A program made the position numbers and the translations under genes. From positions 1,792,001 through 1,856,000 of the forward strand of contig CAWJGT010000003.1 in the NCBI GenBank assembly GCA_963842525.1: a stretch of DNA of 64,000 nucleotides, read 5' to 3'. Source of the DNA: an uncultured Holophagales bacterium (lineage in GTDB: Bacteria; Acidobacteriota; Thermoanaerobaculia; Multivoradales; UBA5704). Shown here one piece after another: positions 34,315 to 64,000 of this stretch. Under the pieces are notes generated by a model that did not search any database, had not been told where the DNA came from, and saw only the letters and a program-made list of their open reading frames with translations. Each line of letters starts with the position of its first letter. Within the stretch, counting starts at the first letter, position 1.

Positions 34315-34341
34315 TGAGGGGGTCTCTCCTTCTCCCTCGTT
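34315..34341 (+). promoter_or_regulatory. TGAGGG-N17-CGTT motif copy 1 (upstream of sheath)
   Basis: TGAGGG 34315-34320, CGTT 34338-34341; same spacing as four other copies. Confidence 0.6.
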
Positions 34342-34453
34342 GTGTGGACGAGTAGATGAAGCGGCTCCTGGGGCGACCCGGAGCGGCGAGGCACCAACGA
34401 GAACTGTGCGCCCTGTCGGCCGGAAGGCGAGGGTCGCCAAGGAGAGAGCTCTT

Positions 34454-39359: not shown

Positions 39360-39920
39360 ATGCCGCTTCCTCTCTCGTCCCTGTCGCGCGTGTGCCGGTA
39401 CGTGGCCGACTTCGTCGGCTCCGAGCTGGAGGCGAGCACGCACTCGGTCCGCGTGCTGATCGGCTCTCCGGCCGAGGCGGCCAAGGATGCCGAGACCGAG
39501 CACCGTATCAATCTGTTTTTCTATCTGATCGAACCGTCCGGCTTCGGCTTTGGCATGGCCCCGGGCGAGACCTGGCTGCTGCGCCTGCACTGCCTGATCA
39601 CGGCCTTTGGCGCCGCAGAAAGCCCGGTCAGCTCGGGGGAGAACGACCTGCGGCTGCTCGGCGAGGTCCTGCGCGCCTTCCACGAAAATCCGGTCCTTCC
39701 GCCGCTCGACATCGATGGCTCTACCGTGCGGATGCAGGCGGTTTTCGAGCCCCTCACCCTCGACCAAATCAATCACATCTGGTCGACCCAGGGGGACGTC
39801 ACCTACCGTCCGTCGGTCGGCTATGAGATGACCCTGCTGCCGGTCATACCGAAGACGCCGGCGGTGGCGAGCCCGCTCGTCGCCGCGATCGACGTCAGCG
39901 TCCATGCGGAGGAGCCATGA
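39360..39920 (+). CDS. DUF4255 / Afp16-Pvc16-like tail cap (terminator) protein
   Basis: INLFFYLIEP, LHCLITAFG, LLGEVLRAFHENPVL, IWST....YRPSVGYE; position directly before the AAA+ ATPase. Confidence 0.85.
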   Translation: MPLPLSSLSRVCRYVADFVGSELEASTHSVRVLIGSPAEAAKDAETEHRINLFFYLIEPSGFGFGMAPGETWLLRLHCLITAFGAAESPVSSGENDLRLLGEVLRAFHENPVLPPLDIDGSTVRMQAVFEPLTLDQINHIWSTQGDVTYRPSVGYEMTLLPVIPKTPAVASPLVAAIDVSVHAEEP

Positions 39921-41260
39921 GCGCCTGGGCACTGGGCGTCGAGCCGGAGAACGCCATCCTCGCGCGGCCGGAGCTGCTGCGCGCCGAGTGGGAGCGCATC
40001 GAGCTGCTCGGCCACTGCCTCGACCAGTCGCGGCGCGGTCAGGAGGTCGGGAAAGAGGTCATCTCGCGCCTCCAGGGCCTCCAGTCGGAGGTGCAGCAGT
40101 CGCGGCCGGATGCCTGGCGGATCGTCGATGCGCCCGACCTCGCGCCGCATGAGTACGACCTGCTGGCCTGCGCGGTGGCTCCCGAGGCCGAGCCCCGGCT
40201 CGGATGGCTCTTCCAGAGCCTCCAGCCCGGCGCACCGCAGCCCTATCCGACCCCTGCCTTCGTCCACGACCTGCTGGCCATGGACTCCCTGGAGGCGAAT
40301 ACGCTCTATGAAGCGCTCGCCGACGGCGGCAGGCTGCGCCAGCGCAACCTGATCCGCGTGGACGGGGAGGACCCCTACCAGCCGATCCGGCCCGGTCCGG
40401 GGATTGCCGCCCGCCTGCTTGGCCGTCAGGGAGGCGATGCGGCCCCGCCCGGCGCCGTCAAGGTCACCGCGCGGCCGGCCTGGGACGACCTCGTGCTGCC
40501 GCAGTCCCACCTCGCCATGCTGCGCGAGCTGCTGCTCTGGGTGCAGCACCGGCGCATCGTTGTCGAAGAGTGGGGTGGCGGCGAGGTCGGCGGACCGATC
40601 GCGCTCTTCGCCGGCCCGTCGGGCACCGGCAAGACCTTCGCTTCGGCGGTGCTCGCCGCCGAGCTCGGCTGGCCGCTCTATCGGGTCGACCTCGGCCAGC
40701 TCGTCAGCAAGTACATCGGCGAGACCGAAAAGAACCTGAACCGCCTCTTCGACGCCGCACACGGCCGGCCCATGGTCCTGCAGTTCGACGAGGCGGACAG
40801 CCTCTTCGGCAAGCGCGGCGAGATCAAGGAGGCGCGCGACCGCTACGCCAACCTGGAGGTCAACCACCTGCTGGCGCGCATCGAATCGCACCGCGGCCCC
40901 TGCATCCTGACCTCCAACCTGCGTCGCAACATGGACCAGGCCTTCGCGCGGCGCTTCCAGGTCGTGGTCGACTTCCCGCGCCCGGACGCCGAGTCGCGCT
41001 CACGCCTCTGGGCCCGCCTGCTGCCTCCGCGCGCCCCCCGCGCGGCGGACGTCGATCCCGAGTTTCTTGGCCTGGCGGCCAACCTGACCGGCGGCGGCAT
41101 CCGCAACGCCGCCCTCCACGCCGCCTACCTGGCAGCCGGGGCGGGCACGCCGATCACCCTGGCGCACGTGACCCTGGCGGTCTGGCGCGAGCTGGGCAAG
41201 GACGGCCGCGAGCTGTCGCGTACCGACCTCGGGCCGCTGGCGCCGTACCTGGCGGAATAG
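39917..41260 (+). CDS. eCIS AAA+ ATPase (Afp15/Pvc15-like)
   Basis: WDDLVLP, GPSGTGKT, VDLGQLVSKYIGETEKNL, FDEADSLFGKR, DRYANLEVNHLL, DQAFARRF. Confidence 0.93.
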   Translation: MSAWALGVEPENAILARPELLRAEWERIELLGHCLDQSRRGQEVGKEVISRLQGLQSEVQQSRPDAWRIVDAPDLAPHEYDLLACAVAPEAEPRLGWLFQSLQPGAPQPYPTPAFVHDLLAMDSLEANTLYEALADGGRLRQRNLIRVDGEDPYQPIRPGPGIAARLLGRQGGDAAPPGAVKVTARPAWDDLVLPQSHLAMLRELLLWVQHRRIVVEEWGGGEVGGPIALFAGPSGTGKTFASAVLAAELGWPLYRVDLGQLVSKYIGETEKNLNRLFDAAHGRPMVLQFDEADSLFGKRGEIKEARDRYANLEVNHLLARIESHRGPCILTSNLRRNMDQAFARRFQVVVDFPRPDAESRSRLWARLLPPRAPRAADVDPEFLGLAANLTGGGIRNAALHAAYLAAGAGTPITLAHVTLAVWRELGKDGRELSRTDLGPLAPYLAE

Positions 41261-48450: not shown

Positions 48451-51400
48451 GCGCCGCCGACCGCGATCTCACCCGCTGGAACCGCTCGGGCCTCAAGCGC
48501 TTCCGCTACGTGGACGGCAATGCCGCCACGCACCTGGAGGAGCTGCGCCTCGCACTGCTCTCCCGCTTCCTGCACGAGAAGGCCGGAGGCGGTCAAGGGA
48601 TCCGGACGCGGCCGCAGCCTCGACTGGTGGCGCGAGGTCTGGGCCGATCCTCCCGATGCCGCCTCCGACCCCGACGGCCGCGAGGCGCTCGACGGCCTGC
48701 TCACCGACCTCCGCGGCCGTCTCGCCTGGACCGGCGAGGGCTCCGACCCCGGGCCGCTCTGGACGCCCGTGCCGCCGCGCCCCGAGGCCGAGGGCGAGCG
48801 CGCCGGCCGCCTGCTCGGGCAGTATGAGGGGGCGCGCCGCGACCTCGCCTGGGAGGTCGTGCGCTCCTTCTCCCGCGCCGCGCACGTCCTGACCGAGCAC
48901 CTGGACGCCTACGCCAACGAGGGGTTCCTGGGCACCGCCACGCAGTGGGAGAGCGTCCGCCGGCTGGCCGCCATGCTCGACGCCCGCCCGGCGCCGCCGG
49001 CCTCCGCCTCGACGGTGCTGCTGCTCCAGGCCAAGGAGGGGCGCCAGGGGGTGGTGGAGAAGGGCTTCCAGGTCAAGCACACGCCCGCGGACGGCGGCGC
49101 GCCCGTGATCTTCGAGACCCTGGAAAACATCCAGGTGGATGCCGCCCTCGACGAGCTGCGCCCGCTCGGGTTCGACCGCAACCCCGAGCTCCTGCAGGGC
49201 TCGCGGCTCGACCTCGCCGGCCGGATCAAGGGGTTGCGCACCGGCGAGCCGCTGATCCTGGAGGACGACCGCAACGGCCAGCTCCACGCCCATGTGATCC
49301 GCGGCGTGCTGGAGGAGGACGCGGCGACAATAGTTGACGTGGCGCCGCCGGTCGCCGGCGGCCCCGGCGGACTACCGCGCGGACACGTGATCGTCCACTC
49401 CGTGCCCCGCGATCGCCTGGCGCCGCTCGCCCCCGCCGCCACTTCCGTTCAGATCGGGCGCGCCCTCCACCTCGCCGAGGAGCCGTCCGGCCTGGCGGTG
49501 GGCGAGACCGTCTGGATCGGCGACGGCCGGCGGTCGCTCTTCCGGCGGGTGGACGCGGTCCAGGGCCGCCGCCTCACGGTCTACGAGGACATCGGCGAGC
49601 TGCGGGTCGACCTCACGGAGGTCGGGCGCCCGGTGCTCGTGCCGGTGACCAGCATCACGGGCCGCACGGTCGAGCAGACGCAGGACGGCCAGAACGTGGA
49701 CGTCCTCGCGGTCAAGGTGGCCGGCGACTGGACGCGCCTGCTCGGCGGCTGGGTGGCTGGCCGGCGCGGCGGCAGCCTGGCCCCCTGCCGGGTGTTCGGG
49801 GTGGACTACCGCCCCGTGGGCTCGGGCGTCGGACGACGCCGGCTACTCCTTCCTCCGCCTGGAGTGGCAGCACGGCGGCACGGGGAACCTGAACCCGCAG
49901 ACGCTCCTCGCGCCGCCGCCGGGCGGCGGCGTCTGGAGGGCCGACCGCTTCCTGGTCGAGGAAAGCTCCCGGGTGCCGCGCGACCTGGTCACCACCGTGC
50001 CCAAGAAGACGGCGGCCGGCGACCTGGCGGCCGTGGTAAGCGGCGGGCGGGTGGCCTGGGCCCGGCTGGGAGCGGTCGAGGTCGACACCGCCAGGGAGCA
50101 GGCAACCCTTCGCGCCGAGGCCGATTGGCGCGACCGCGGCGGGGCGCCGTACTTCTTCGCCGGGACCACTGTATACGGCCACTTCGAGCACCGCGTGCGC
50201 CTCGCCGGCTGGGACCGCAACGACCAGCCGCTCGCCGGCAGCGAGGTGCCGCTGGCGCAGGTGCCCGCGGCTCTGCGCTCCGGCCGCATCGTCTTCCTGG
50301 GGCGGCTGGACCAGCCCGGCGCCGGCCGGGTCGCCAAGGTGGGCGAGGTCAGGGACCGGTCGATCGTGCTCGACGCCGTGCTGCCGGAGGGCTCGACCTA
50401 CGGCAACCTGGTGCTGCGCGGCAACACGGTCGCGGCCGGGCACGGCGAGGCCAAGGAGGAAAGGGTCCTGGGCAGCGGCGACGCCTCGCAGTCGGGGCAG
50501 GTCTTCGTCCTGCGCGACAAGGGGGTCTCCTTCGTGGCCGACTCGAACCACCCGGCCGGCGTGCGGGCGGACATCGAGGTCCGCGTCGGCGACCGCGCCT
50601 GGCAGCAGGTGCCGACCCTCGCCGACTCCGGGCCGGCCGACCCGCACTTCGTGCTGCGCATGACCGAGGACGGCGGGCTCGAGCTGACCTTCGGCGACGG
50701 CCGCAACGGGCGCCGCCTGCCGACCGGCACCAACAACGTGCGCATCGCCTACCGGGTGGGTACGGGCCTCGCCGGCAACCTGCCGCCGGGGCGGCTGGAA
50801 AAGCCGGCCCGCCCGCATCCGCTGATCGAAGCCGTGCGGCAGCCGCTGCCGGCGACCGGGGGCAACGACATGGAGGCGATCGAGTCGTTGCGCGCCACGG
50901 CGCCGGCGAGCGTCTCAACCCTTGGCCGCGCCGTTTCGCTGGCCGATTTCGGACGGCTGGCGGCGAGCCAGAGCAGCCTCTGGCAGGCGCGCGCCTTCCC
51001 GTTGCCGGCGGGCATCGGCCGGCAGGAGAGCGTGCGGGTGGTCGTGGTGCCAGCCGGCGGCGGCCCCTTGGACGGCCTCGCCGTCTCGCTGCAGGCCTTC
51101 CTGGAGGCCCATGCCCTGCCCGGCGTGGCGGTGCGGGTGGAGCGCTACACCTCGGTGGCGATCTCGCTCCACGTCACGCTGCAGATCAAGACCGCCGAGT
51201 TCGATCCCGACCGCGTCCTCGCGGCCGTCCGCGAGCGCCTGCTCGAGGCCTTCGGCCTGCGCGGCCGGCGCATGGGGCAGGCGCTGCGCCTCGGCGAGAT
51301 CTACCACGTCGTCGAAGGGGTGAGCGGCGTCTCCAACTCGCTCTGCGTCCTCGACGGCGACCCCGCCCGCAACCATGTCGTGGCGCCGCCGGACGGCGTG

Positions 51401-51460
51401 GTCCACCTGGATGCGGAGCAGTCCTCCCTGATCGTTGTCTACAAGGAGTTCGAGCTGTGA
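48447..51460 (+). CDS. Large baseplate J-like assembly protein (Afp11/12-like); frameshifts ~48590 and ~49825
   Basis: RWNRSGL.RFRYVDGNA, ANEGFLGTATQWESVRRL, FETLE, GNTVAAGHGE, LGSGDA, FGDGRNGRRLPTG.NNV..YRVG.G..GN, RAVSLADF. Confidence 0.85.
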
Positions 51461-53187
51461 ACGATCTCGAGACCCGCACCGGAAACCAGCTCTACGACCT
51501 CCTCCCGGAGGTCTATCGTAGCCGCGACGACGGCAGCCTCGCCGCCTGGATGAATGGCATGGGGCACCTCCTGGACCTTGTCCGCAACACGCTGGAGCAG
51601 CGGCTGGCCGACTGCTTCCCGGACGCACCGCTGCGCGGCCGGGCCAGCCAGGACTGGCTGCTGCCGTACTTCGCCGACCTGCTGGAGCCGCACATGATCT
51701 CCTCCGACCCCCGCGCCCAGCGCGCCGAGGTGGCGAACGCCATTGCCTGGCGGCAGCGCAAGGGGACGGTCGCCGTGGCTGAGCAGGTCGCCCAGGGGGT
51801 CGGGCAGATCGAGGTCGAGGTCCAGGAGGGGTGGAAGCGCGTCGCCGTCACCCCGCGGATCGGTGGCACCCCGCCGCCTCCGCCTCCCATGGAAGGAGAT
51901 CCCTGGGCCGACGGGCCGGCCGGCACGGTGGCCTTCGGCTTCCCGTCGCGCGCCGTCCGCGTCGATCCCGAGGATCCGGCCGCGCGCGTCACCCGCTTCG
52001 GCGACCAGTGGATCCCCTGGCGCCAGGCCCATGCCTCGGGCACACCCGCCTTCCCCGGCAGCTACGAGGACGTCTCGGCCCGTACCGTGGACATGCGCTC
52101 GCCCGACTGGCGCTGCGGGCACGCCCATCCGCGGCGGCTGCTGCTCTACTATCCGCCGCAGGGCGGCTTCTTTCCGCCCGGGGCGCCGGTGGTGGACTGG
52201 TACGCCTGGGCCTCCCGGCGCTCGATCTTCGAGCAGGGGCTCGCGCAGCTCGATGCCGGAGAGGAGAGCCGGATCTCGTTCAGCGATGTCTCGGCCGAAC
52301 GGCTCCCCGAGTCCCAGGGCATCGCGCGCGTCCTGATCAAGAAAGGCGGCGCTCTCGTAGGCGAGCGCATCAGCGAGCCCCACGGCCGGGTCACCCTGCG
52401 GATGCTCCTCTCCGGGCGGTGGATGGAGAGGAGCACCAAGCCCGGGGAGCCCGTCCTCTACCGTGGCGACGGCCGGCCGGTGATCGTCCGCGCCAGCAGC
52501 TCCGGCAATACCATCCACCTCGGTTCGGAGCTCCGCGTGGACTTCGAAGGGCTCTCCTTCGACGCGAGGCTCATCGGCAGCAACGGAACCCGCCTCAGGT
52601 TCCGCAATTCGGCCGCCCGGGAGGTCAACGTGCCGACGGCGGACCTGCATGAGCCTGTCATCGAGGCCGTCGATTCCCTCTTCGACTGGTTCGCCGCAAT
52701 CAACGGCCTTGTGCGCCTCGAATACGTGACCGTTCTGTCCGAGATCGCGGCGTCAGCGGCGTCGCGCGTCCAGGTGAGCGATTCGCTGCTGGTGGGGCAG
52801 CTCCAGATCTTCTCCTCCCAGCTCCCGAGCGTGATCCGCTATTCGCGCCTGCCCTGGCTCCCTGAGGGGGCGCCGGTCCTGGCGGCGTTCAATACCACGG
52901 AGCGCCCCCTGTTCGTGGAGCTGGACTTCCAGGAGGACGCCGGGACCGTCCGGCGCGCGGCCCGCTTCGGCGAGCCCGGCGCCGGCGTGCTCCACCCCGA
53001 AGCGCCGCGGGCGATCCGCCTCGGCGCCGAGGACGGCGGAGAGATGGGGGCCTATCACGGACGCCGCTACAGCCTGACGGCCGAGGCGGTCCGCAACAAG
53101 CTCGAAGACTACCTGCCGGTCGGCGTCGAGGCAGTGCTGATCCCCGATCCGCAACTCCTCAACCCGCCGCCCGAGCTCGAAGGGTGA
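51457..53187 (+). CDS. Baseplate gp7/P2 gpI-like tail protein
   Basis: GTG overlaps the previous stop; LYDLLPEVYRSRD, WLLPYFADLL, RAEVANAIAWRQRKGT, GAEDGGEMGAYH, LEDYLPVG. Confidence 0.82.
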   Translation: MNDLETRTGNQLYDLLPEVYRSRDDGSLAAWMNGMGHLLDLVRNTLEQRLADCFPDAPLRGRASQDWLLPYFADLLEPHMISSDPRAQRAEVANAIAWRQRKGTVAVAEQVAQGVGQIEVEVQEGWKRVAVTPRIGGTPPPPPPMEGDPWADGPAGTVAFGFPSRAVRVDPEDPAARVTRFGDQWIPWRQAHASGTPAFPGSYEDVSARTVDMRSPDWRCGHAHPRRLLLYYPPQGGFFPPGAPVVDWYAWASRRSIFEQGLAQLDAGEESRISFSDVSAERLPESQGIARVLIKKGGALVGERISEPHGRVTLRMLLSGRWMERSTKPGEPVLYRGDGRPVIVRASSSGNTIHLGSELRVDFEGLSFDARLIGSNGTRLRFRNSAAREVNVPTADLHEPVIEAVDSLFDWFAAINGLVRLEYVTVLSEIAASAASRVQVSDSLLVGQLQIFSSQLPSVIRYSRLPWLPEGAPVLAAFNTTERPLFVELDFQEDAGTVRRAARFGEPGAGVLHPEAPRAIRLGAEDGGEMGAYHGRRYSLTAEAVRNKLEDYLPVGVEAVLIPDPQLLNPPPELEG

Positions 53188-53874: not shown

Positions 53875-53937
53875 CCATACCGCGGAGTGGACGGCCGCCG
53901 CCGTCGCAGCCGATCGATTGACAAGGGACAGGCCGAC

Positions 53938-56805
53938 ATGAAGACTCAGATCTCCAGGAACGGATATGCCGCCGAGAAGCGCTACTCCGGGGTCTACCAG
54001 CAGCAGGGCAGCATCCTCACGGACCGCGACTGGAACGAGATGGTCGATGTCCTCAAGGGGCGCATCGACGAAGGATTGGCCCACGCGGTGGGGGCCGGCC
54101 TGGCGCGCAGCGGCGCCGTCGAGATCCTGCCGGGCTCCAGCTCGCAGGGGCTCGCGATCCGACCCGGGACGGTCTACGCCGGGGGGGTGACAGCCCAGGT
54201 CGCGCCCGCCGCCGGGGCCGCGGTCCCCTTCCGCTACGACCAGCAGGCCGACTTCCCGTCGCCCCCTGCGCTGCCTGCGGGCCAGGACTACGTCCTCTAC
54301 GCGGACATCTGGGAGCGGCCGGTGCTGGCCATGGAGGACGAAGGCCTGCGCGACCGCGCCCTGACCGGGGCGGCCGATCCCAGCACCCGCAGCCAGACCC
54401 TGGCGCAGATCAAGTGGGCCCCGGCTTCCTCGGACCCGGAAGACCCGGGCCAGAATCCACCGCGCGGCAACGCAATCCTCAGGGTGTCCGTGCCGTCGCA
54501 GGACCACCTCCCCGGACCCGATACCGACACCCTTCCGGAAGCCGTCGATCCGCTGGGCAGAGACGTCCTCCTCCGTCTGGAGGTCCACAACGTGACCTGG
54601 CCGGAAGAAGCCCCGCCGGAGTGGTGGTCCCGCATCGTCCTCAAGTGGTCGCGGGAGAACGGCGCGCGGCAGTACCGCTACCTGGAGGTGCCCCCCTGGT
54701 TCAAGACCGGGACGTGGATCTACGAGCTCTACGACCCGGAGGCCGAAAAGCACCTGGGCTACACCTTCGGGAGCTGGACCCCGGTGCGCGGAACGCTTTC
54801 GTCGACGTTCCCCGAGGTGAGCGGGGAGATCGCCGCACGCTCCTTCGTCCGGCGCTGGGACGGCTACTGCATCGTCTCGAGAACGGACTCCAGCAATCCC
54901 CACCTCCCTGCTTTCCAATTTGACGAGGACCCCGCGACGACCGCTCCCGGGTCCGTGGTCACCCTGTCCTCCTGGGAGGAGCCCTCCCCCGATGGGGACC
55001 TGGCCGTGAATCTCGGCCATCTCAGGCTCGACCTCACCCTCCAGAGCTCCGTCCTCCTGGCCGGAGACTCCTGGCAGGTCCCGGTCCGCCGGGCCGGCTA
55101 TCTACCCGGATCACAGATCCTGGCGGATCTGCCGTCGGGAGTTGCGCACCGCTACGCGACCCTGGCCACGGTCAGTGCCGCGGGGGCCGTGACGCCGCGG
55201 CTAGCCACCTTCTCGCCCCTGACCGCGCTCCAGGCGGGCGATGTCGCCTACGACGGCAGCGGTGCCACGAACGGCCTCTTCAACGCCTCCCACAATACGG
55301 TGAAGAAGGCGCTGGACCGACTCTGGAGCCTCGGCGCCGAGCACGCCGGGTACACCAGGTCCGCGAACAAAGGGGTCTACAAGGACAGATCCGCCGCCAA
55401 CGTCAAGCAGGCATTGGACCTGCTGAGCGACGTCCGTGCGCGGCAGATCGTCTACGACGGGCGGACGGGCGTGCCCGATCCTCAGGCCGCTCTGGACGCG
55501 TTGTTCAACCGCTCCACCAAGCTCAACGCCTGGACCACGGTCGGCGGGGCCGGGCAATATACGTCAGTCAATGCGGCGGTCACCGCGCTCCTCGCGCAAC
55601 AGAAGCGCGACATCCGCCTGTGGCTGCTGCCGGGCGATCATCGAGCTCGATCCGACGCAGCCGCTGATCACCGCGCAGGACGCGGTCCATCTGACCCTCG
55701 CGGGTGCCGGCTGGGTCTCCCGCCTGCTCGTCCGGGGAGCGGTCTCGTTCCAGGGCTTCGCCTCGGTGACGTTCCAGGGGCTGGCCGTCGAAGTCGACCG
55801 CCTGGCCGGCGTGTTTGTGAGCGGCGGCGAGTCTCTCTCCTGGACAACCGCATCTCGGGCATTTGCACCGAGGACGGCAAGGGTTTGATCCATTCGACCG
55901 GCAGCTCCCGCATCCTGCTGCGGGACAACATCGTCGAAGCCTCCCGGAACGATCCCACGGTGGAGCCGGTGTCGATCCTCGCGCCGCTCGATACCGAGGC
56001 CGCGCTGCGCGAGCTGTTCTCGACGCGCTCGCCCAGGCTGTTCGCGCTGCGTGCCAACGCGATGGACCTGCGGGTGCAGGCGCTCACGAAAGCCGAGCGC
56101 CAGCAGAGGGCGGACGCCATCCAGGCGCTGCTGGACCTGCGCCCGGACCTCCCGAAGGGGGCCTACAACACCTTCGTGACCAATCTGCGCGGCACATCTG
56201 TCGGTTTTCTCAACGGCACCTTGTCCCCGATCCGCGTCGAAGCCGTGCGGCGGGCGCTCCCCGGCACCTTTCTCACGATCGACGACATCGCCGGCAGCGT
56301 GCGCCTGGAGGGCAACCAGATCTTCGGCACCGTGAGCCTCTACGGGGCGCCCGGCGGCGAGCTCACCTCTGCCGATCTCCAGCGCATCGCCGGGCAGATC
56401 ACGACGATTTCCTTCGACGCGGCAGGCGGGTATGACCTCGTGGCCCGCAACAACAGGATGACCGGCTTCCGCATCGGCAAAGCGAGAGTCGAGCGACTCC
56501 AGGCCCAGAACGGCGCCGGGCTCGTCTATCGCCGCATCTGCCTGCGCGACAACACGATCGACAGCACCGGCAATCAGCTCCTGGCCGGCGCCGTCTCGCT
56601 GCAATCGAACCTCGTCCTCGCCGCGCCCACGTGGGGATGGATGATCACGGACGAGGCCTTGCTCCAGCTCAACCTGACGCGCTTCGCCGTGACGCAGAGC
56701 GCCACGGCCATCGATGTCCTGGCGCGGAGCGGGGTGACGGCGCTCAACGGGGCCTCCTTCAACGTACGTCAGCCGGCGTCGGAGTTGGCTCCCACGGTCC
56801 CCTGA
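53938..56805 (+). CDS. DUF6519-like eCIS protein (putative tail fibre) with C-terminal beta-helix, paralog 1; compensating frameshifts ~55640 and ~55835
   Basis: MKTQISR...KRYSGVYQQQG.ILTDRDWNE, LYADIWERPV..ED..LRD.AL, LRLEVH, KWSRENG, RRWDG, GDSWQVPVR, and NxI beta-helix rungs. Confidence 0.8.
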   Translation: MKTQISRNGYAAEKRYSGVYQQQGSILTDRDWNEMVDVLKGRIDEGLAHAVGAGLARSGAVEILPGSSSQGLAIRPGTVYAGGVTAQVAPAAGAAVPFRYDQQADFPSPPALPAGQDYVLYADIWERPVLAMEDEGLRDRALTGAADPSTRSQTLAQIKWAPASSDPEDPGQNPPRGNAILRVSVPSQDHLPGPDTDTLPEAVDPLGRDVLLRLEVHNVTWPEEAPPEWWSRIVLKWSRENGARQYRYLEVPPWFKTGTWIYELYDPEAEKHLGYTFGSWTPVRGTLSSTFPEVSGEIAARSFVRRWDGYCIVSRTDSSNPHLPAFQFDEDPATTAPGSVVTLSSWEEPSPDGDLAVNLGHLRLDLTLQSSVLLAGDSWQVPVRRAGYLPGSQILADLPSGVAHRYATLATVSAAGAVTPRLATFSPLTALQAGDVAYDGSGATNGLFNASHNTVKKALDRLWSLGAEHAGYTRSANKGVYKDRSAANVKQALDLLSDVRARQIVYDGRTGVPDPQAALDALFNRSTKLNAWTTVGGAGQYTSVNAAVTALLAQQKRDIRLWLLPGDHRARSDAAADHRAGRGPSDPRGCRLGLPPARPGSGLVPGLRLGDVPGAGRRSRPPGRRVCERRRVSLLDNRISGICTEDGKGLIHSTGSSRILLRDNIVEASRNDPTVEPVSILAPLDTEAALRELFSTRSPRLFALRANAMDLRVQALTKAERQQRADAIQALLDLRPDLPKGAYNTFVTNLRGTSVGFLNGTLSPIRVEAVRRALPGTFLTIDDIAGSVRLEGNQIFGTVSLYGAPGGELTSADLQRIAGQITTISFDAAGGYDLVARNNRMTGFRIGKARVERLQAQNGAGLVYRRICLRDNTIDSTGNQLLAGAVSLQSNLVLAAPTWGWMITDEALLQLNLTRFAVTQSATAIDVLARSGVTALNGASFNVRQPASELAPTVP

Positions 56806-56894: not shown

Positions 56895-59681
56895 ATGAAG
56901 ACACAGATCTCCAGAGATGGATACCGCGCCGACAAGCGCTACTCCGGCGTCTATCAGCAACAGGGCCGGATGATCACCGACCGCGATTGGAACGAGCTGG
57001 TCGATATCCTGAAAGCCCGCCTCGACACGGGGCTGGCCGACGTCGTGGGCAGCGGCGTGCCGCGCGAGCATGCCGTCGCGCTGCGCAAGGGCGCGCAGGG
57101 GCTGGAGATCCGGCCAGGTGTGGTCTACGCCGGCGGCGTGGCCGCGCAGATCGGATCCTCCTACGGACCTTCGACGTTCTTCGGCTACGACCAGCAGGTC
57201 GACTTTCCGTCGCCCCCCCTGCCGCAGGCCAACCAGCCGTACGTCGTCTATGCGGACGTCTGGGAGCGTCCGGTCTCCGCGCTGGAAGACGAAGGGCTGC
57301 GCGATCCGGCCCTGAACGGAGCCGACACGACGACGCGTACCCAGACGATGGCCCAGATCAAGTGGGCCCCCACCGGAAAGAAACCCGAGGACGCGGGCCA
57401 GAACCCGCCGCGCGGCAACGGGACGCTCTCGGTGAGCGTACCGGCGGCGAGCTCGGGCGATCCGCTGGGCGGCACCGACGCGGCCGGCGGGGACTACCTG
57501 TTCCGCCTGGAGGTCCACGACGTGACCTGGCCGTCGAACGCGGCTCCGGACGCGCCGGGCCGCGTGGTCCTCAAGTGGTCCCGCGAGAATGGAGCCGAGC
57601 AGCACAAGGCCCTGGAGGCCCCCAGCTCCTTCCGGTCCGGGCCCTGGATCTACGAGCTGTACCAGCTCGCGAACGAGAAGACCCTCGGATTCCATTACGC
57701 CACCTCCTGGCAACCGGGCCGCGGCGAGCTGTACACCGTGTTCCCTTCCCTGTCCTCCCAGGCGCACCAGAGCCATTTCCTGCGCCGCTGGGACGGCTAC
57801 TGCGTCCTCCAGCTCCAGAGCAACAAGTCCTGGGGTTTCTCCTCCAATCAGGTCGAGGAGCCGAGGCGGACGGCTCCGGGGGCGACGGTCCAGCTCGAGA
57901 GTGGACGACTCATCGTGCGGCTCCTCGACCTCGAGCTCGACCTCGACATCCAAGGCCGGACCTTCCTGGCCGGAGACTACTGGCAGGTGCCGGTCCGCCG
58001 CGCCCTCCACCAGCCCGGAACCCAGATCGTCCAGTCGGCTCCGCCGGCGGGCATTACGCACCGCTATGTGACCCTGGGCTCGGTGAGCGCCACGGGCGAC
58101 GTGACGCCGCGCGCCACCTTTCCGCCCCTGACCGCCCTCCAGGCAGGCGATGTGGGCTACGACGGCAGCGGCTGCACGACCGGTCTCTTCAATGGCTCCC
58201 ACGATACGGTGGAGAAGGCCCTCAACCGTCTCTGGCAGCTCGCCGCCGAGCACGTCGCGTACACCAAGCCCGCGGACAGCTCGCTCTACAAGGGCAAGAC
58301 CATCGCCAATGCCAAGAATGCCCTGGACCTGCTGAGCGACGTCCGCGCGCGGCAGATCCTCTATGACGGAAGGACGGGCGTGCCGGACGTCCAGGCCGCT
58401 CTCGACACGCTGTACACCCGTCCCAGCGGCGACTCCTGCGGCTATACGGTCGGCACGGGCGGAGAATTCGCCAACATCGACACGGCAATCCAGACGTTGA
58501 TGACCCAGCAGAGGCAGGATATCCGCCTGATGCTGCTGCCGGGCGACCACGTGCTGAGCGCGAAGCTCCGTCTTCCTCAGCGACCGCAACGTCCACCTGA
58601 CCTTCACCGGCACCGGCTGGGCATCCCGCCTGATCATCAACAAGGCATTCTCGATTCAGACGCCCGCCTCCGTGACCTTCCAGGGCCTGCACATCGAATT
58701 CCAGGGAACGGGCTCTCTCGTGAGCCAGGGCGGCGAGGTCAGCTTCCTGGACAACCGCATCACCGGCGTCTCCACGGCTGCCCTGATCCGGCCCCAGATC
58801 TGCTCGCGCATCCTGTTGCGCGACAACCTGGTCGAGGTCTCGGAGATCGACCCGACGCTCGAGCCGGTCTCGATCCTCGCGCCGCTCGACACCGAGGCCG
58901 CGATCCAGCAGTTGTTCTCGACGCGCTCGCCGCGGCTTTTCGCGCTGCGCGCCAATGCGATCGACGACAGGATCGCTGCGCTCACCGAGGCCGAGCGCCT
59001 GCAGCGGTCGGACGCCATCCAGATGCAGTTGAACAAGTTTCCCGACCTGCCGAAGGCCGCGTACAACACCTTCCTGATGAACCTCCGGGCCGGAGCCCGG
59101 GGCTTCCTCAACAACACCCTCTCCGCGGTCCGCGTCGAGGCCTTGCAGCGGGCGCGCCCCGGCCTCTTTCTCCAGCTCGACTCTCCCCTGTCGCCGCTGC
59201 GGCTGGAGAGCAATCAGATTTTCGGCTACGTGAGCCTCTACGGCGCTCCGGGAGGAGACCTCACCTACACCGAGCTGCGCAACTTCAGCAGTCAGGTGGG
59301 GAACACACTCTTCGATTCACAGGCTCGACACGACCTGATCGCCACCGGCAACCGGATGAGCGGATTCCGCGTCACTGCACACACCTTCAGCTCGATCCGC
59401 ACGGGCACCCACATCACCCCGCTTTTCCAGCGCATCACGCTGACGGACAACACCTTCGAGGCCGGAGGCAACCAGCTCGTCGCGTGCAACGTCGAGCTCA
59501 GCTCGAACCTGTACACAGCGCCGACCTTCGGCTGGGCCATCGGGGAGGAGGTCCTGCTGATGAGCAACGTGGCGCGCATCGATGTCGGCCTCGACGTGGT
59601 CACCCGGAACATGGTGTCGACCGGCAACTCGACGCGCATGAAGATCCGGCGGATCACGCCGAGCTCCCCGCCACGCCATGA
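56895..59681 (+). CDS. DUF6519-like eCIS protein (putative tail fibre), paralog 2; frameshifts ~58575 and ~59655
   Basis: Collinear with paralog 1 (MKTQISR, YSGVYQQQGRMITDRDWNE, EPVSILAPLDTEAA, STRSPRLFALRANA). The ELPATP* end overlaps the next ATG, like paralog 1's ELAPTVP*. Confidence 0.78.
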   Translation: MKTQISRDGYRADKRYSGVYQQQGRMITDRDWNELVDILKARLDTGLADVVGSGVPREHAVALRKGAQGLEIRPGVVYAGGVAAQIGSSYGPSTFFGYDQQVDFPSPPLPQANQPYVVYADVWERPVSALEDEGLRDPALNGADTTTRTQTMAQIKWAPTGKKPEDAGQNPPRGNGTLSVSVPAASSGDPLGGTDAAGGDYLFRLEVHDVTWPSNAAPDAPGRVVLKWSRENGAEQHKALEAPSSFRSGPWIYELYQLANEKTLGFHYATSWQPGRGELYTVFPSLSSQAHQSHFLRRWDGYCVLQLQSNKSWGFSSNQVEEPRRTAPGATVQLESGRLIVRLLDLELDLDIQGRTFLAGDYWQVPVRRALHQPGTQIVQSAPPAGITHRYVTLGSVSATGDVTPRATFPPLTALQAGDVGYDGSGCTTGLFNGSHDTVEKALNRLWQLAAEHVAYTKPADSSLYKGKTIANAKNALDLLSDVRARQILYDGRTGVPDVQAALDTLYTRPSGDSCGYTVGTGGEFANIDTAIQTLMTQQRQDIRLMLLPGDHVLSAKLRLPQRPQRPPDLHRHRLGIPPDHQQGILDSDARLRDLPGPAHRIPGNGLSREPGRRGQLPGQPHHRRLHGCPDPAPDLLAHPVARQPGRGLGDRPDARAGLDPRAARHRGRDPAVVLDALAAAFRAARQCDRRQDRCAHRGRAPAAVGRHPDAVEQVSRPAEGRVQHLPDEPPGRSPGLPQQHPLRGPRRGLAAGAPRPLSPARLSPVAAAAGEQSDFRLREPLRRSGRRPHLHRAAQLQQSGGEHTLRFTGSTRPDRHRQPDERIPRHCTHLQLDPHGHPHHPAFPAHHADGQHLRGRRQPARRVQRRAQLEPVHSADLRLGHRGGGPADEQRGAHRCRPRRGHPEHGVDRQLDAHEDPADHAELPATP

Positions 59682-62600
59682 GCAGCGGACCGGCCGTCGC
59701 CCACAAGGCCGCGGAGGCCGGGAGGCAGCGCACGCCGTCTCCCGTCCCGGCCGGCCCCTCGCCGCAGCGGGAGGAGATCCGCAGTGCCCTCTCGCGTGAC
59801 GAGGAGTACCGCCTCGCGCGCACCGAGGACGGCGGCATCGTCCTGTACTTCCATCCGCGGGACTACTTCACCTGGTCCGATCCCCTCGGCGAGACCTTCG
59901 GCCGCTACGTGCTCCACGTCTTCCCGGGAGCCACCCGGGAGGACGCCGAGGAGTGCGCGCGCGACAACGGGGTCTTCTGGGTGCAACGGGTCCCCGAGGA
60001 TGCCGCGGGCCGCGGCCTGGTCCCCATCACGATCCAGGGGCCTCTTCACTCCCAGGTCAAGGCCTGGTTCAAGACGCACCGCCCCGGCCTCCTGCCGGTG
60101 GAGCCCGCGCCCGGATTCTTCCGCCTGGCGGACACGCGTCCCGACCGCAGATCGCTGGACGTGATCCGTACCTTCGTGCCGAAGGGGGCGCTCGTCCTCC
60201 AACCCGACGTAGGGACCTTCGTCCAGGGGAGCACCATCAAGGCGGCCGTCGAGTTCGCCGGCGACTCCGCCAACGAGCGCCTCAACCTCTATCCCAGCAT
60301 GGCCGCCTTCGACTGGACGGTCGTCGATGCGAACGGCCAGGAAGTCCTGACCGGCCCCCTCTTCGAGGGGCGCGGCACCCGCATCTACGAATTCGAGCTG
60401 AGCGAAAAGGGCCGCTACGAGGTCCGGGTCACGGTCTCCAGCCGGTGGTTCAGCACCGGCGACTTCACCCCGCCGCCGGTCTCGATCCTGGTGGTCAGCG
60501 AAGCGCAGCGCGAGAAGGAGGTCTTCGACCTGCTCCTCACCGGCCCCGGCGAGGAGGCCCCGTTCGAGCGCGTCGGCAGCGAGCTGCGTCTCAAGCCCGG
60601 CGCCGAGCCTCTCTCGGTGGACCGGGAGGTCGAGAAGGCCGACTTCTGGGTCCGGCTCGTCGACCGGATGCAGGCGAGAGGGCAGATCACGGAAGAGCAG
60701 GCCGAGGAGTTCCGCGAAGTCTGGACGGACCGCAAGGAGATGCTCGAGGAGAAGAGGGAGCTGCTGACCGGCACTACGCCATACATCGCCTACGGGAGCT
60801 TCCTCGATGCCACCACCTCCGCCTATCTGCCTCTCCAGGTCGCCCTGCGCGGCGAGAGGCGGAACGAAGGATCCTCCCTCGGCTTCAGCTTCCGACTGCT
60901 CGACTTCACCCTGGCGCCGTACGACCCGCCGCTCCACTCGGGCGAAGCCGAGGTGGAGGTCGCGTTCGGCGACGAGCAGACGGCGACCCGCCGGGCCGAG
61001 ATCGCGGCCCTCGACGAGCTGGCCGGGCACTGGCAGTCCAACAACAGCTATCCGGACGGCACCGTGCGTCTCGTCGTCCGGCTCTCCGACGGGACCCTCT
61101 ACGAGAGGCCGCCCATCGACACCCGCAGCGCCAAGAAGGACGTGCAGCAGGCCGCGGGCAAGGTGGCCCTGGTCCTCGGCGCCGTGGCGCTCGGCATCTC
61201 CCTGATCAATCCCGTCGGCATCCTTTTCGTCGTCGGCACGGGCGCGGGCGTCCTCGCGGCCGGCGCCGGGCTGACCGATGTCGGCCTGCGGCTGGAGCAG
61301 CGCATCCAGACCCACACGCTGCACGCCGACCGCCAGGTGGCGCTCGACTGTCTGCAGGTGGCCGCCACGATCGCCGGCATCGGCGGCATGGCCCGGGCGG
61401 TGCGCTCCGGCAGGGTGCTGAGCGACGGCCGCCTCCTGGTCGGCATGGCCGGCCTGGACGTGGCGCAGGGGATGGTCCTGACCGCCGACGTGCAGGCGCG
61501 CATCCTGGAGGTCGAGGCCGACTACCACAGCCGCGCCGCGGCGCTCCAGGAGCAGGGGAATGCCGTCGAGGGGGACCTGAAGGCGCTCGCCGTCGAGAGG
61601 GACACCGCCGTCGCGAACATCCTCGGCGAGGCCGCCATCGGCGGCGGCTTCCTCCTGGTCTCGCTGGGCAGGGGAGTCAAGGACATCAGAAACCACGTGC
61701 GGAGGGTGGCGGCGAGCGGCGACCCGCGGCTCATCCGCAACACCCTGGGGACCGACCGCGTCCTCACTCCGGACGAGGTGCGCCAGCTCAACACCGCGCT
61801 CGAAGCGGCCGAGCCGCCGGCGAGGATTGAAGAGCCGCCCACGGCCACCGCGAAAGTGGAAGAGCCGCTGCCCGCGCCGCCGAGGGTCGAAGAGCCGGTG
61901 AAGCCCGAAGCCAGGGTGGAAGAGCCGCCCCCCGCAACGGCGAAGATCGAGGAGCCTGCCAAGCCCGGGCCGAAGGTGGAAGAGCCCGGCACGCCGGAGA
62001 AGCCCAGGCCTCCCAGGCCCGCAAGTCCAGAGCCCGCCGCAACGGTCCGTCCGGTCCCCGAGGTCCGGGGACTGGTGACCCTCCCCGCCAAGCCGGTCCG
62101 GCCCGGCGAGCTGCGCTACGACTACCAGACCTGGCTGCGCTCCGAGGTCGAGCATCCGGTCTCGGAGGCGCGGCGCGCGCGGGCCGCCGAGCTGGCGGAG
62201 CGTCTGGCCGGCTTGGACAAGAGGCAGCGCAACGTCGACAAGGTCACGCGACAGCTCGACGAAGCCGAGATCGAGGCCCGGGAGGCAGCCCTCGAGGAGC
62301 CCAAGACGGGAGAGGCGCCGCCGCCACCTTTCGACGAAAAGGCCCATCAGGCCGCCCGCGAGCGCAACGCGGCGGAGCAGCAGCAGATCCTGGCGGACAC
62401 CGTCCCCCTGATGCACGCCCTGCAGGAGCACGCCAACTCGTCCCTGTCCACGGACATGGGCGGCACCCCGGCCCAGATGCTCGACCTCCAGGGACGCCTC
62501 AATCCACCCGAGATCCGGGGCCTCCACATCGAGCTCGGCCGCGAGCGGTTCGTCAAGCTGCTCGGCGCCGGCCCCGACGTCGTCGGCCGGTTCCTGGACG

Positions 62601-63601
62601 TGCGCCGCCAGACCAACCTCACCCGGACCGGCCGCCTCCGCCTGCTCGAGATCCTCGACCTGCACCGCAGCGGCGCCCTCGACGACGCCCGCCTCTCCCA
62701 GGCGCTCGACGAGTGCCGGGACTTCCTGACCCTTTATCCGAACGGGATCAAGGGGGACTTCCGGCGCATGGCCGCGGCGTTCGATCCGGCCGCCCGCGTC
62801 TCCACGGTCGAGGCGCTCCCCACCTCCGAGCTGTACCTGCGGGCCCAGTCGGGGGACGCGGATGCCGCCCACGAGCTCGAGCTGCGGCGCCAGAGCCTCT
62901 CCACCGAAGAGCTCCAGACCGCCGCCCAGCAGGCCGAACAGGCCGCGCGGCGGGCCCGCAAGGCCAAGCGCAAGGACGAGGCGCGGAGCGCCAAGGGCGA
63001 GCAGGACCGGCTCAGAACCCTGCTGGCCGAGCGCAACGTCCTCTTCACAGGGGTCCGCACCACCGACGGCCCCTTCACCACCCACCCCGAGCTGCGCAGA
63101 GTCTTGGAGAACGACCTCCGCAAAAGCCGGGTCGTGGGCCGGATCGACATCCCGCAGTCCGATGCCGCCGTCGAGGGAGGCACCCTCGGAGCCGCGCGCA
63201 CCGACATCCCGGGCGTCGGCCCCCGCAAGCTCTTCCTCGGCCGCTCGCCCAAGGCGCACGCCGAGGGAGAGGCCTCGACGATCAATCCCAGGTACAAGGC
63301 CCCGGCCGAGACCGCGGCCGCCCACGGGCACGCCGAGCAGACCCTGGTCGGCAACCTCGCGGACGACATCGACCAGCTCATCAAAGCCGGCAAGCTGACC
63401 CAGGCGGACCTCCAGGGGAAGACCGTCTGGATGCTCATCGATCAGGAAGTCTGCAGCTACTGCGGCTCCGGCCTGGACAGCCCCGTCGCTCCCGGCGTGC
63501 TGGCGCAGTTCAGCCAGGACTTCCCGCTGCTCACCATCCAGATCAAGAACCTGCGGACCAGCGACCTCATCATCCTGAGGGGCGGCCGCCGGATCAATTA
63601 G
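59678..63601 (+). CDS. Putative eCIS effector: large polymorphic-toxin-like protein with hydrophobic segment, Pro/Glu repeats and a C-terminal Zn-dependent deaminase domain
   Basis: GHAEQTL ... DQEVCSYC (HxE..CxxC) near the C-terminus; hydrophobic VALVLGAVALGISLINPVGILFVVGTGAGVLAAGAG; lies directly after the structural genes. Confidence 0.78.
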   Translation: MSSGPAVAHKAAEAGRQRTPSPVPAGPSPQREEIRSALSRDEEYRLARTEDGGIVLYFHPRDYFTWSDPLGETFGRYVLHVFPGATREDAEECARDNGVFWVQRVPEDAAGRGLVPITIQGPLHSQVKAWFKTHRPGLLPVEPAPGFFRLADTRPDRRSLDVIRTFVPKGALVLQPDVGTFVQGSTIKAAVEFAGDSANERLNLYPSMAAFDWTVVDANGQEVLTGPLFEGRGTRIYEFELSEKGRYEVRVTVSSRWFSTGDFTPPPVSILVVSEAQREKEVFDLLLTGPGEEAPFERVGSELRLKPGAEPLSVDREVEKADFWVRLVDRMQARGQITEEQAEEFREVWTDRKEMLEEKRELLTGTTPYIAYGSFLDATTSAYLPLQVALRGERRNEGSSLGFSFRLLDFTLAPYDPPLHSGEAEVEVAFGDEQTATRRAEIAALDELAGHWQSNNSYPDGTVRLVVRLSDGTLYERPPIDTRSAKKDVQQAAGKVALVLGAVALGISLINPVGILFVVGTGAGVLAAGAGLTDVGLRLEQRIQTHTLHADRQVALDCLQVAATIAGIGGMARAVRSGRVLSDGRLLVGMAGLDVAQGMVLTADVQARILEVEADYHSRAAALQEQGNAVEGDLKALAVERDTAVANILGEAAIGGGFLLVSLGRGVKDIRNHVRRVAASGDPRLIRNTLGTDRVLTPDEVRQLNTALEAAEPPARIEEPPTATAKVEEPLPAPPRVEEPVKPEARVEEPPPATAKIEEPAKPGPKVEEPGTPEKPRPPRPASPEPAATVRPVPEVRGLVTLPAKPVRPGELRYDYQTWLRSEVEHPVSEARRARAAELAERLAGLDKRQRNVDKVTRQLDEAEIEAREAALEEPKTGEAPPPPFDEKAHQAARERNAAEQQQILADTVPLMHALQEHANSSLSTDMGGTPAQMLDLQGRLNPPEIRGLHIELGRERFVKLLGAGPDVVGRFLDVRRQTNLTRTGRLRLLEILDLHRSGALDDARLSQALDECRDFLTLYPNGIKGDFRRMAAAFDPAARVSTVEALPTSELYLRAQSGDADAAHELELRRQSLSTEELQTAAQQAEQAARRARKAKRKDEARSAKGEQDRLRTLLAERNVLFTGVRTTDGPFTTHPELRRVLENDLRKSRVVGRIDIPQSDAAVEGGTLGAARTDIPGVGPRKLFLGRSPKAHAEGEASTINPRYKAPAETAAAHGHAEQTLVGNLADDIDQLIKAGKLTQADLQGKTVWMLIDQEVCSYCGSGLDSPVAPGVLAQFSQDFPLLTIQIKNLRTSDLIILRGGRRIN
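61810..62000 (+). repeat. 30-nt (10-aa) coding tandem repeat, [KR][VI]EEP x6
   Basis: RIEEPPTATAKVEEPLPAPPRVEEPVKPEARVEEPPPATAKIEEPAKPGPKVEEPG. Confidence 0.8.
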
Positions 63602-63613
63602 CAGGAGACGTAC

Positions 63614-64000
63614 ATGCCGTTCATCCAAGACAAGGAACCCGCCGCCGCGGTCTGGCGCCGGTTCCTGGAGAAGTCCGCCACGCCCCTTGGACCCGTCCCC
63701 GACCGGCAGGAGGTCCGCCGCATCCTCGCGCAATCGCCCACGGCCGCGCTGCCGGCTCTCGCCATGGGCGGCCTGCCCGCTGTCGGTGGGCTCGTGCAGG
63801 GTGCCACGAATGAGGATGCCCAGACCGTCTGGAGCAAGATCGCCGACGTCAAGACGAAGGCCGAGCCGGGACAGCCGGAGACGCCGCAGCAGACGCGCGC
63901 CCATCAGGCCATCCAACAGATGCTCTCCATCCCCGAAGGGATCACGCTCGTCCGGCAGCTCGGCCGGCTCTTCGGCAAGCGCGACAAGCCGACCTTGGAA
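63614..64000 (+). CDS. Hypothetical protein (partial), candidate second eCIS cargo
   Basis: AGGAG RBS; ATG 63614 is open to the window end (MPFIQDKEPAAAVWRRFLEKSATPLGPVPDRQEVRRILAQ...). Missing from the ORF track because it has no stop. Confidence 0.7.
   Translation, partial: MPFIQDKEPAAAVWRRFLEKSATPLGPVPDRQEVRRILAQSPTAALPALAMGGLPAVGGLVQGATNEDAQTVWSKIADVKTKAEPGQPETPQQTRAHQAIQQMLSIPEGITLVRQLGRLFGKRDKPTLE

Follow-up and report, generated by a model that had tools for sequence, protein, structure and literature searches.

We examined a stretch of 64,000 nucleotides (hereafter the window) from an uncultured Holophagales bacterium (assembly GCA_963842525.1, contig CAWJGT010000003.1, positions 1,792,001 to 1,856,000 of the forward strand), which carries an operon for an extracellular contractile injection system (eCIS). 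After the fibre genes, the operon ends in two genes for candidate cargo proteins, a large toxin with a deaminase-like end and a small zincin-like protein, open reading frame 2 (ORF2). These otherwise dissimilar proteins share a short motif, R-x-E-[IV]-R-x-x-L, at the same distance from their initiator methionines, and the core of this motif recurs near the N-termini of most cargo encoded in related loci. We consider it probable (roughly 60%) that the motif is the conserved core of an N-terminal cargo leader specific to this lineage of eCIS. The motif itself is real, as are its position and its conservation on unrelated cargo; recognition of the cargo by the ATPase of the locus, and loading into the particle, are suggested by analogy with better known systems.

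The toxin and ORF2 can be aligned without gaps over residues 24-38 (P24-AGPSPQREEIRSA-L38 and P24-LGPVPDRQEVRRI-L38), with 8 of 15 positions identical plus an I/V exchange, and the core in its widest form, [IVL]R.[AIVT]L, begins at residue 34 in both. When the two proteins are compared by BLASTP, this leader is the best segment (E 0.025, 23 bits), the remainder of the proteins being unrelated. An earlier note on this DNA had pointed out both the common register and the dissimilarity of what was visible of the rest, and was right on both counts. The two N-termini are hydrophilic (Kyte-Doolittle -0.91 over 35 residues for the toxin, -0.62 for ORF2) and bear a charge of +2 and +1, respectively, over residues 6-21. 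As P24, G26 and P29 are encoded by different synonymous codons in the two genes, the likeness lies at the protein level and does not stem from a recent DNA duplication.

Both start codons, whose possible mis-assignment the earlier note had seen as a threat to its claim, hold up. From the preceding in-frame stop (59642) to residue 40, the toxin ATG at 59678 is the sole ATG, GTG or TTG, and the ORF2 ATG at 63614 is preceded 7 nt upstream by AGGAG, with 6 out of 6 homologues beginning at the aligned methionine. The automatic call of the toxin gene (P0008) begins at V78, 77 codons late, and so loses the leader; it is too short, since residues 40-77 are conserved in four homologues (P0009, P0010, P0011 and the orthologue in locus L005). 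The calls of two orthologues (P0009 and P0010) begin inside the motif, at the V of 'VRRIV'. Such mis-starts would hide the leader from surveys of protein databases. The start of the toxin gene is here corrected to ATG 59678.

Taken by itself, the pair is only marginally significant once the number of scannable windows and of gene pairs is allowed for. The full pattern drawn up in the earlier note, P-x-G-P-x-P-x-R-x-E-[IV]-R-x-x-L, matches only these two sites in the genome, but it was derived from them, and the shorter E[IV]R..L occurs 857 times in the 16.2 million residues of the six-frame genome ORFs. Because the pair alone is only marginally above chance, the case for a non-random origin rests on the relatives.

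A search of GTDB genomes with the second fibre gene of the operon gave 12 related loci, deposited as Thermoanaerobaculia, Gammaproteobacteria, Nitrosomonadales/Sulfuricella, Acidobacteriota, Phycisphaeraceae, Nitrospina, Alphaproteobacteria and Mesorhizobium, among others. Genes beyond the fibre gene are visible in nine of them (n = 13); two other contigs stop within 1 kb, and no candidate was seen after the fibre gene of L009. Twelve of these 13 post-fibre genes encode an eCIS_core domain (DUF4157) followed by diverse toxin domains according to Pfam (colicin-type DNase/WHH, HNH, Aspzincin_M35 with PG_binding_1, YkuD with Peptidase_C15, Endonuclea_NS_2), and the thirteenth (L005, 12792-16547) is a full-length orthologue of the window toxin. 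The core, written as [IVL]R.[AIVT]L, starts at residues 26-37 in 11 of the 13, for instance within QQTEVRRAL in L005, RRAEIRHAL and QRAEVRRAL in the consecutive pair of L010, and QRPRVRGAL and RRSLVRQAL in L007. Other eCIS-linked proteins thus carry the core of the motif in the same place, a point on which the earlier note had made its proposal of a packaging tag depend.

Alignment by MAFFT of 15 N-termini (the window pair, 11 of the post-fibre genes and two metagenomic proteins) yields one block, with the consensus QRxxVRxALxGxQxKLxVxxPxDxxExEAxxVA, in which R35 and L38 (toxin numbering) are invariant. As a control, the loose motif was sought at residues 20-45 in the same loci; of the cargo ORFs that pass the coding filter, 9 of 12 contain it, and of the remaining coding-like ORFs, 7 of 140. 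The strongest single item for a motif beyond chance is P0014, a 256-residue metagenomic protein of the ORF2 family (E 3e-60), the N-terminus of which is identical at 15 of 18 positions to residues 21-38 of the toxin; the same leader is therefore found on two unrelated protein families. Within the ORF2 family, R31, R35 and R36 are invariant (7/7 sequences). These counts favour the earlier proposal of a packaging tag, with packaging itself suggested by analogy with the Photorhabdus virulence cassette (PVC) and with AlgoCIS, the eCIS of Algoriphagus machipongonensis.

A number of observations weigh against a common cargo leader. In the genome, at least 8 of 15 identities to toxin residues 24-38 are reached at 201 sites among 19.9 million six-frame positions (~1e-5 per position), and in a genome-wide tblastn with both leaders the score of the pair lies within the noise. 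A tighter pattern modelled on L005 and L010 has 42 genome occurrences, both window sites included, and was relaxed after the window sequences had been seen; the strict consensus of these two loci, [RQ].E[IV]R[RH]AL, has a one-residue mismatch in each window protein. Among the relatives, the core is missing from two of the 13 sister cargo genes (in L011 and L016), its register is looser across loci (residues 26-37) than in the window pair (34 and 34), and the P-x-G-P-x-P half is limited to close relatives. Of the pattern in the earlier note, then, the second half stands: R-x-E-[IV]-R-x-x-L, or more widely [IV]R..L, is the only part conserved. Hidden Markov models (HMMs) built from the leaders of the DUF4157 cargo (alignment A3, columns 1-72 or 1-46) did not return the window proteins among the best 500 or 496 matches listed from 101,991 six-frame genome ORFs, and the full leader model instead matched two other DUF4157 proteins (contigs C30 and C9). 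Of the pattern and HMM searches that the earlier note had suggested, the first finds the core in related eCIS cargo, and the second did not list the window pair. An hhalign comparison of the ORF2 family (alignment A1) with the DUF4157 cargo (A3) aligned only 12 columns around HExxH, with a probability of 24%. In the ORF2 family, moreover, the motif is followed by a long uncharged stretch rich in Gly, Ala and Pro that could serve another purpose. Finally, the window ATPase has one AAA domain and Pvc15, in the published description, has two (PMC11495950), which makes the analogy inexact.

Some of these points are what one would expect of a chance match between two N-termini rich in Pro, Arg and Ala, encoded in a genome of 70% G+C (the window itself has ~70%): the BLASTP E value of only 0.025, the 201 equally similar 15-mers and the failure of the leader HMMs. 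Such a match would not account for a core found at the same place in 11 of 13 sister cargo genes against 7 of 140 other ORFs, for the 15 of 18 toxin leader residues in P0014, a member of another protein family, or for the invariance of R35 and L38 in 15 sequences, and coincidence, already disfavoured, now has very little to recommend it.

Two further searches bear on the distribution of the motif. In the six other eCIS_core proteins of the genome, the motif was found upstream of the domain in none, and their N-termini differ from the leader; the motif is system-specific within this genome. When toxin residues 1-60 were used as query for shorter proteins in a library of 5.8 billion sequences, 146 candidates were obtained, none at E <= 10, the region being too short for a library of this size.

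In the sister loci, the core is followed by LQxKLxVGxPxDxxExEADxVA and then by the eCIS_core (DUF4157) domain. The window cargo have neither the LQxKL..ExEAD part nor DUF4157, and the short element is therefore all that both cargo share. Four sister loci with two cargo genes each (L006, L007, L010 and L015) have N-termini that are alike within the locus and remainders that are different. In L010 (12942-20490), two consecutive genes combine the leader and eCIS_core, one with YkuD/Peptidase_C15 and the other with colicin-DNase/WHH; an immunity gene of the SMI1_KNR4 (SUKH) type (E 8e-21), which overlaps the end of the toxin gene, has no leader (a single example).

The constant position of the element ahead of the HExxH-bearing eCIS_core domain in the sister loci also suits a tag that is specific to cargo but does something other than loading. 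It could be where a processing zincin (DUF4157 in the sisters, possibly ORF2 here) docks or cuts, or where a chaperone binds and so holds the toxin inactive inside the producer. Roles in maturation, release or immunity have been proposed for DUF4157 in the account of Geller 2021 (PMC8213781), and no immunity gene was seen beside the deaminase toxin, either here or in L005. Such a tag would sit awkwardly with a window locus that has no eCIS_core gene at all, with an ORF2 that bears the tag itself, and with the tagged toxin of L005, which is present without ORF2. In AlgoCIS, moreover, the cargo proteins Cgo1 and Cgo2 are reported to need their disordered N-terminal domain (NTD) in order to be loaded into the tube lumen, DUF4157 being dispensable for this (bioRxiv 10.64898/2026.05.27.728243). 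We thus hold a processing or chaperone site to be improbable, though it is the most serious competitor of a loading leader.

The toxin opens with the leader, continues with a conserved body of ~1100 residues that includes a hydrophobic stretch, and ends in a deaminase-like domain. Its L005 orthologue is 47% identical over residues 30-1307, with the same deaminase-like end; the alignment begins at residue 30 against residue 28, and QQTEVRRAL lies at the place that matches the toxin motif. In the last ~140 residues, HAE and CSYC are invariant in all four orthologues. In an AlphaFold2 (AF2) model of this domain (predicted local distance difference test, pLDDT, 60.6), the secondary-structure elements follow one another as in the deaminase fold, and 9 of the 10 best structural neighbours of the model are nucleic-acid deaminases, all with Z below 8: the double-stranded DNA deaminase DddB comes first (Z 7.1, root-mean-square deviation (rmsd) 3.4, 98 of 108 residues aligned), followed by PPR-DYW (Z 6.6) and by TOD6, APOBEC3G, DddA, a Pseudomonas syringae type VI secretion toxin and AID (Z 4.8-5.4). 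Foldseek gave weak matches of the deaminase kind (best E 0.043), and searches of Pfam and of PDB sequences with the C-terminal domain gave no match. The predicted structure tentatively suggests an end that is nucleic-acid-deaminase-like.

The body of the toxin is shared with a metagenomic homologue, P0011 (locus L004), which has an N-terminal eCIS_core domain and a different C-terminal end. This arrangement fits the polymorphic-toxin pattern, with its long linkers, that has been described for eCIS toxins (PMC8213781). The window toxin has no PF13699 match at E <= 0.01. Its body was not found in the 400 genomes of the same class that were searched; a metagenome scan with the toxin alignment gave one locus, L004, with its eCIS_core-bearing homologue, and a scan of genome contigs gave none, although L005 has an orthologue, so that the peptide patterns used must have been too strict. 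A remnant ORF at C3:1877043-1877435 (+), 21.6 kb past ORF2, joins 'LNPPEIRGLH' (about residues 941-950 of the toxin) to an ORF2-like end of 55 residues (85% identical); it resembles what a deletion would leave of a second toxin-ORF2 cassette.

ORF2 consists of a leader (residues 1-62), predicted to be disordered, and a zincin-like HExxH..GH domain (residues 66-252). The AF2 model has a mean pLDDT of 70.2, with residues 1-62 below 50 and including a short helix at 31-39, and residues 63-254 confident (~80-90). A profile search of 1.84 billion representatives gave at least 124 clusters at E <= 1e-3 that match ORF2 from about residue 66 to 252 (P0013-P0135). In an alignment of 123 sequences, H200, E201, H204, G219, H220 and F232 are at least 90% conserved, and the likely third ligand lies in the G-H pair 16 residues past HExxH. 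All 20 of the best structural neighbours have the zincin fold (YbeY, Z 7.4-7.7, rmsd 4.1-4.2, 124-131 residues aligned; light chains of the botulinum neurotoxin type, 6.2-7.3; Wss1, 7.1; GtgA, 6.1), and the best Foldseek E value is 0.027; since every Z is below 8, this fold assignment is suggestive only. ESM Atlas gave M85/PipA leads, all with scores below 0.9, and a PDB sequence search with the C-terminal domain gave nothing meaningful. Peptidase_M91 is matched at E <= 0.001 by 7 of the 123 homologues, ORF2 itself being under every Pfam cut-off (Peptidase_M91 13.4 bits against a cut-off of 25, E 0.097) and without a PF13699 match at E <= 1. On these models, ORF2 is a putative small zincin-like metallopeptidase.

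ORF2 looks like an effector-type module and not an immunity protein, because its HExxH..GH domain sits behind eCIS_core in 35 of the 123 homologues. Many of these proteins have two HExxH motifs, with the ORF2-like domain at the C-terminal "toxin" position and a leader of the DUF4157 type, P0021 being an example, with QRPRIRSALRGIQAKLSIS. The family has no Pfam model, and its domain is found behind eCIS_core, behind what appear by eye to be Sec-like signal peptides, or alone.

The opposite view, that ORF2 serves the deaminase toxin as its immunity protein or antitoxin and that the shared N-terminus arose by co-evolution or co-regulation, draws on the position of ORF2, which starts 13 nt downstream of the toxin gene, the usual place of an immunity gene, and on the lack of any other immunity candidate seen. 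It must contend with an HExxH..GH signature that is nearly invariant in 123 homologues and with the use of the domain as a C-terminal module of eCIS_core proteins. L005, the sole visible locus with an orthologous toxin, has no ORF2 after it, homologues of ORF2 were not found in 60 related genomes, the SUKH immunity gene of L010 has no leader, and many eCIS toxins are described as having no immunity gene (PMC8213781). We give the immunity view hardly any credence, in agreement with the earlier note, which had taken ORF2 for a second effector.

Another view is that the motif of ORF2 belongs to an export signal of the twin-arginine translocation (Tat) type, with R35-R36 as the arginine pair and an uncharged sequence up to about residue 64; ORF2 would then be a secreted protease, and its likeness to the toxin incidental. 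The ~28 residues after 'VRRIL' are indeed uncharged, with much A, G, L and P, and other proteins with the ORF2 domain (P0024, P0032, P0040 and P0045) have N-termini that by eye resemble Sec signal peptides. The second arginine is absent, however, from the toxin and P0014 (both R-S) and from many sister cargo (R-H, R-Q, R-G, R-N), and what comes after the motif in the toxin and the DUF4157 cargo is charged sequence in place of a hydrophobic core. A Tat signal with an n-region of 34 residues would also be unusually long. An export signal of this kind is thus very unlikely for ORF2, and as the general identity of the motif it can be rejected, the twin arginine and the uncharged h-region not being kept across the motif carriers.

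If the motif is the core of a loading leader, each cargo would open with a hydrophilic, mildly basic and disordered stretch of ~30 residues, followed by R-x-E-[IV]-R-x-x-L, possibly folded as a short helix. This leader would be read by the AAA+ ATPase of the locus (39917-41260), the presumed counterpart of Pvc15 and Alg15, and the ATPase would unfold the cargo and feed it into the tube lumen during particle assembly. The leader would work here without DUF4157. When the ATPase was modelled together with toxin residues 1-60, the complex scored 0.52, against 0.00 for the best of three controls, with runs that agree in at least 55% of contacts and a partner pLDDT of at least 48. The mark for such scores is reached in a benchmark by 51 of 78 solved complexes and by 2 of 108 mismatched pairs. 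Because the range up to 0.60 holds only 5 of the 78 solved complexes, together with all 4 of the mismatches (of 180) that passed, the modelled contact between ATPase and leader is to be regarded as weakly supported.

One could go further and suppose, with the odds somewhat against it, that R-x-E-[IV]-R-x-x-L at ~30 residues from the N-terminus is a minimal, DUF4157-independent label, read by the single-domain AAA+ ATPase of an eCIS lineage that crosses phyla (loci deposited as Thermoanaerobaculia, Nitrosomonadales, Gammaproteobacteria, Phycisphaeraceae, Nitrospina and Alphaproteobacteria). If this were true, the cargo of the lineage would be predictable from sequence and the label transplantable, in contrast with the view that eCIS loading sequences lack a conserved sequence.

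The operon is complete by its Pfam matches and runs on the + strand from ~32.5 kb onward, with a sigma-54 activator, sheath, gp19-type tube, Pvc16_N, AAA+ ATPase, spike OB domain, gp25, baseplate J and two DUF6519-type fibre genes (Table 1); no eCIS_core gene was found in the window locus by Pfam. The second fibre gene is split by a frameshift, the L005 orthologue aligning by tblastn in frame 3 to 58559 and in frame 1 from 58579. This frameshift is either a real mutation or an assembly error; the second frame does not contain the stop of the orthologue and runs 122 nt into the toxin gene. In the baseplate J region, long ORFs overlap in different frames (48520-53187 and 49973-51460), which may be another frameshift or an assembly indel. 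Downstream, a terminator-like hairpin lies at 64780-64812 in window numbering, ~400 nt past ORF2 and ahead of a gene for an extracytoplasmic function (ECF) sigma factor, and no convincing ORF was found between ORF2 and the hairpin. Upstream of the operon, three very long ORFs (1058, 3971 and 4446 residues) occupy 339-29828 on the - strand, with a coding-like G+C at third codon positions (GC3). The genome has five Pvc16_N genes, and hence about five contractile injection loci, and its six eCIS_core genes are in other loci of this kind. Further Pvc16_N or eCIS_core sites are at C3:1871934-1872470 (-) and on contigs C30, C9 and C19, one further contractile injection locus lying ~16 kb past the window end on the opposite strand.

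Table 1. Position of the eCIS operon, its two cargo genes and their N-terminal motif (window numbering).
Feature	Position	Strand	Evidence
eCIS operon upstream of cargo genes	32510-59799	+	Pfam matches
Sigma-54 activator	32510-34072	+	Pfam
Sheath	34340-36367	+	Pfam
Tube	from 36389	+	Pfam
Pvc16_N	39360-39920	+	Pfam
AAA+ ATPase, 447 aa, winged-helix domain (WHD) and one AAA domain	39917-41260	+	Pfam AAA (E 3.3e-22) and WHD
First DUF6519-type fibre gene	53887-56805	+	Pfam PF20129
Second DUF6519-type fibre gene, split by one frameshift	56895-59799	+	tblastn of the 925-aa L005 orthologue
Cargo 1 (toxin), 1307 aa	59678-63601	+	ORF with GC3 0.93; orthologues P0009, P0010, L005
Leader of cargo 1, residues 1-39	59678-59794	+	Hydrophilic; L005 alignment begins at residue 30
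Motif in cargo 1, residues 24-38, PAGPSPQREEIRSAL	59747-59791	+	Translation, pattern search, MAFFT
Deaminase-like domain of cargo 1, ~residues 1166-1307	63173-63598	+	HAE and CxxC invariant in 4 orthologues; AF2 model
Cargo 2 (ORF2), 254 aa	63614-64378, extending 378 nt past the window end	+	Translation, homologues, AF2 model
Motif in cargo 2, residues 24-38, PLGPVPDRQEVRRIL	63683-63727	+	Translation, pattern search, MAFFT

How eCIS particles choose their cargo is still poorly understood. The principle that an eCIS marks its cargo with a common N-terminal loading sequence, specific to the system, is known, and an account of eCIS cargo states that no specific conserved sequence was detected (PMC11297309). 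What is new here is the lineage, a leader that lacks both DUF4157 and the LQxKL..ExEAD half, and the recurrence of a core defined by its sequence in loci whose deposited names span several phyla. A description of the motif was not found in the literature searched, a search that covered neither supplements nor extended-data alignments (such as those of the AlgoCIS NTDs). The window locus is a natural minimal case, with two unrelated cargo, a common core of ~15 residues and no DUF4157. Four residues of the core present themselves for mutation, and its pattern may serve to find cargo of this lineage. Our analysis also gives a zincin-like family that lacks annotation, with at least 124 sequence clusters, a probable role as an eCIS effector module.

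Each of the two cargo has likenesses among known effectors. The window toxin resembles the deaminases of polymorphic toxins (DddA, DddB, SsdA, DYW-like) in its C-terminal module with HAE and CxxC and in its predicted secondary-structure order; it differs from them in that its delivery would be by an eCIS and not by a type VI secretion system, and in that no adjacent immunity gene was seen. ORF2, for its part, resembles the zincin effector proteases (Peptidase_M91/NleD, GtgA/PipA, M85/NleC) in HExxH and in a predicted zincin-like fold, and differs from these families in falling below the Pfam cut-offs and in the likely location of its third ligand. In regard to the eCIS_core (PF13699) toxins known as eCIS-associated toxins, or 'EATs' (Geller 2021, PMC8213781; Danov 2024, PMC11297309), the sister loci put the same leader core before eCIS_core, variable toxins and long linkers, whereas neither of the window proteins matches PF13699.

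In the PVC, N-terminal signal peptides and Pvc15 are reported to serve cargo loading, and the signal peptides group by alignment within lineages (Evans & Waterfield 2024, PMC11495950). The signal peptides of PVC/Afp are also treated in Jiang 2022 and Kreitz 2023, as cited in PMC11297309. The eCIS signal peptides are described as hydrophilic, disordered and slightly positive (PMC11297309), properties that the window N-termini match, being hydrophilic, slightly positive over residues 6-21 (net +1 or +2) and, in ORF2, predicted disordered. Unlike the PVC and Afp, the eCIS lineage of the window has DUF6519-type fibres and a 447-residue ATPase with a single AAA domain, in place of the tandem D1/D2 domains given for Pvc15 (PMC11495950), and no sequence likeness was seen to the PVC signal peptide MPRYANYQ, the one quoted in PMC11297309.

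A close parallel is with AlgoCIS. In the report on that system (bioRxiv 10.64898/2026.05.27.728243), loading depends on Alg15, an AAA+ protein, and on its ATPase activity, and the NTDs are alike within a system, the loading sequence not being conserved between systems. Cgo1 and Cgo2 keep DUF4157 after the NTD, unlike the window proteins, which have none, and the window element, known here from genes alone, differs in being a short core, defined by its sequence, that turns up again in loci of several phyla. What the two systems have in common is a pair of cargo of very different size encoded with the system, similar N-terminal regions on both cargo, and an AAA+ protein in the locus.

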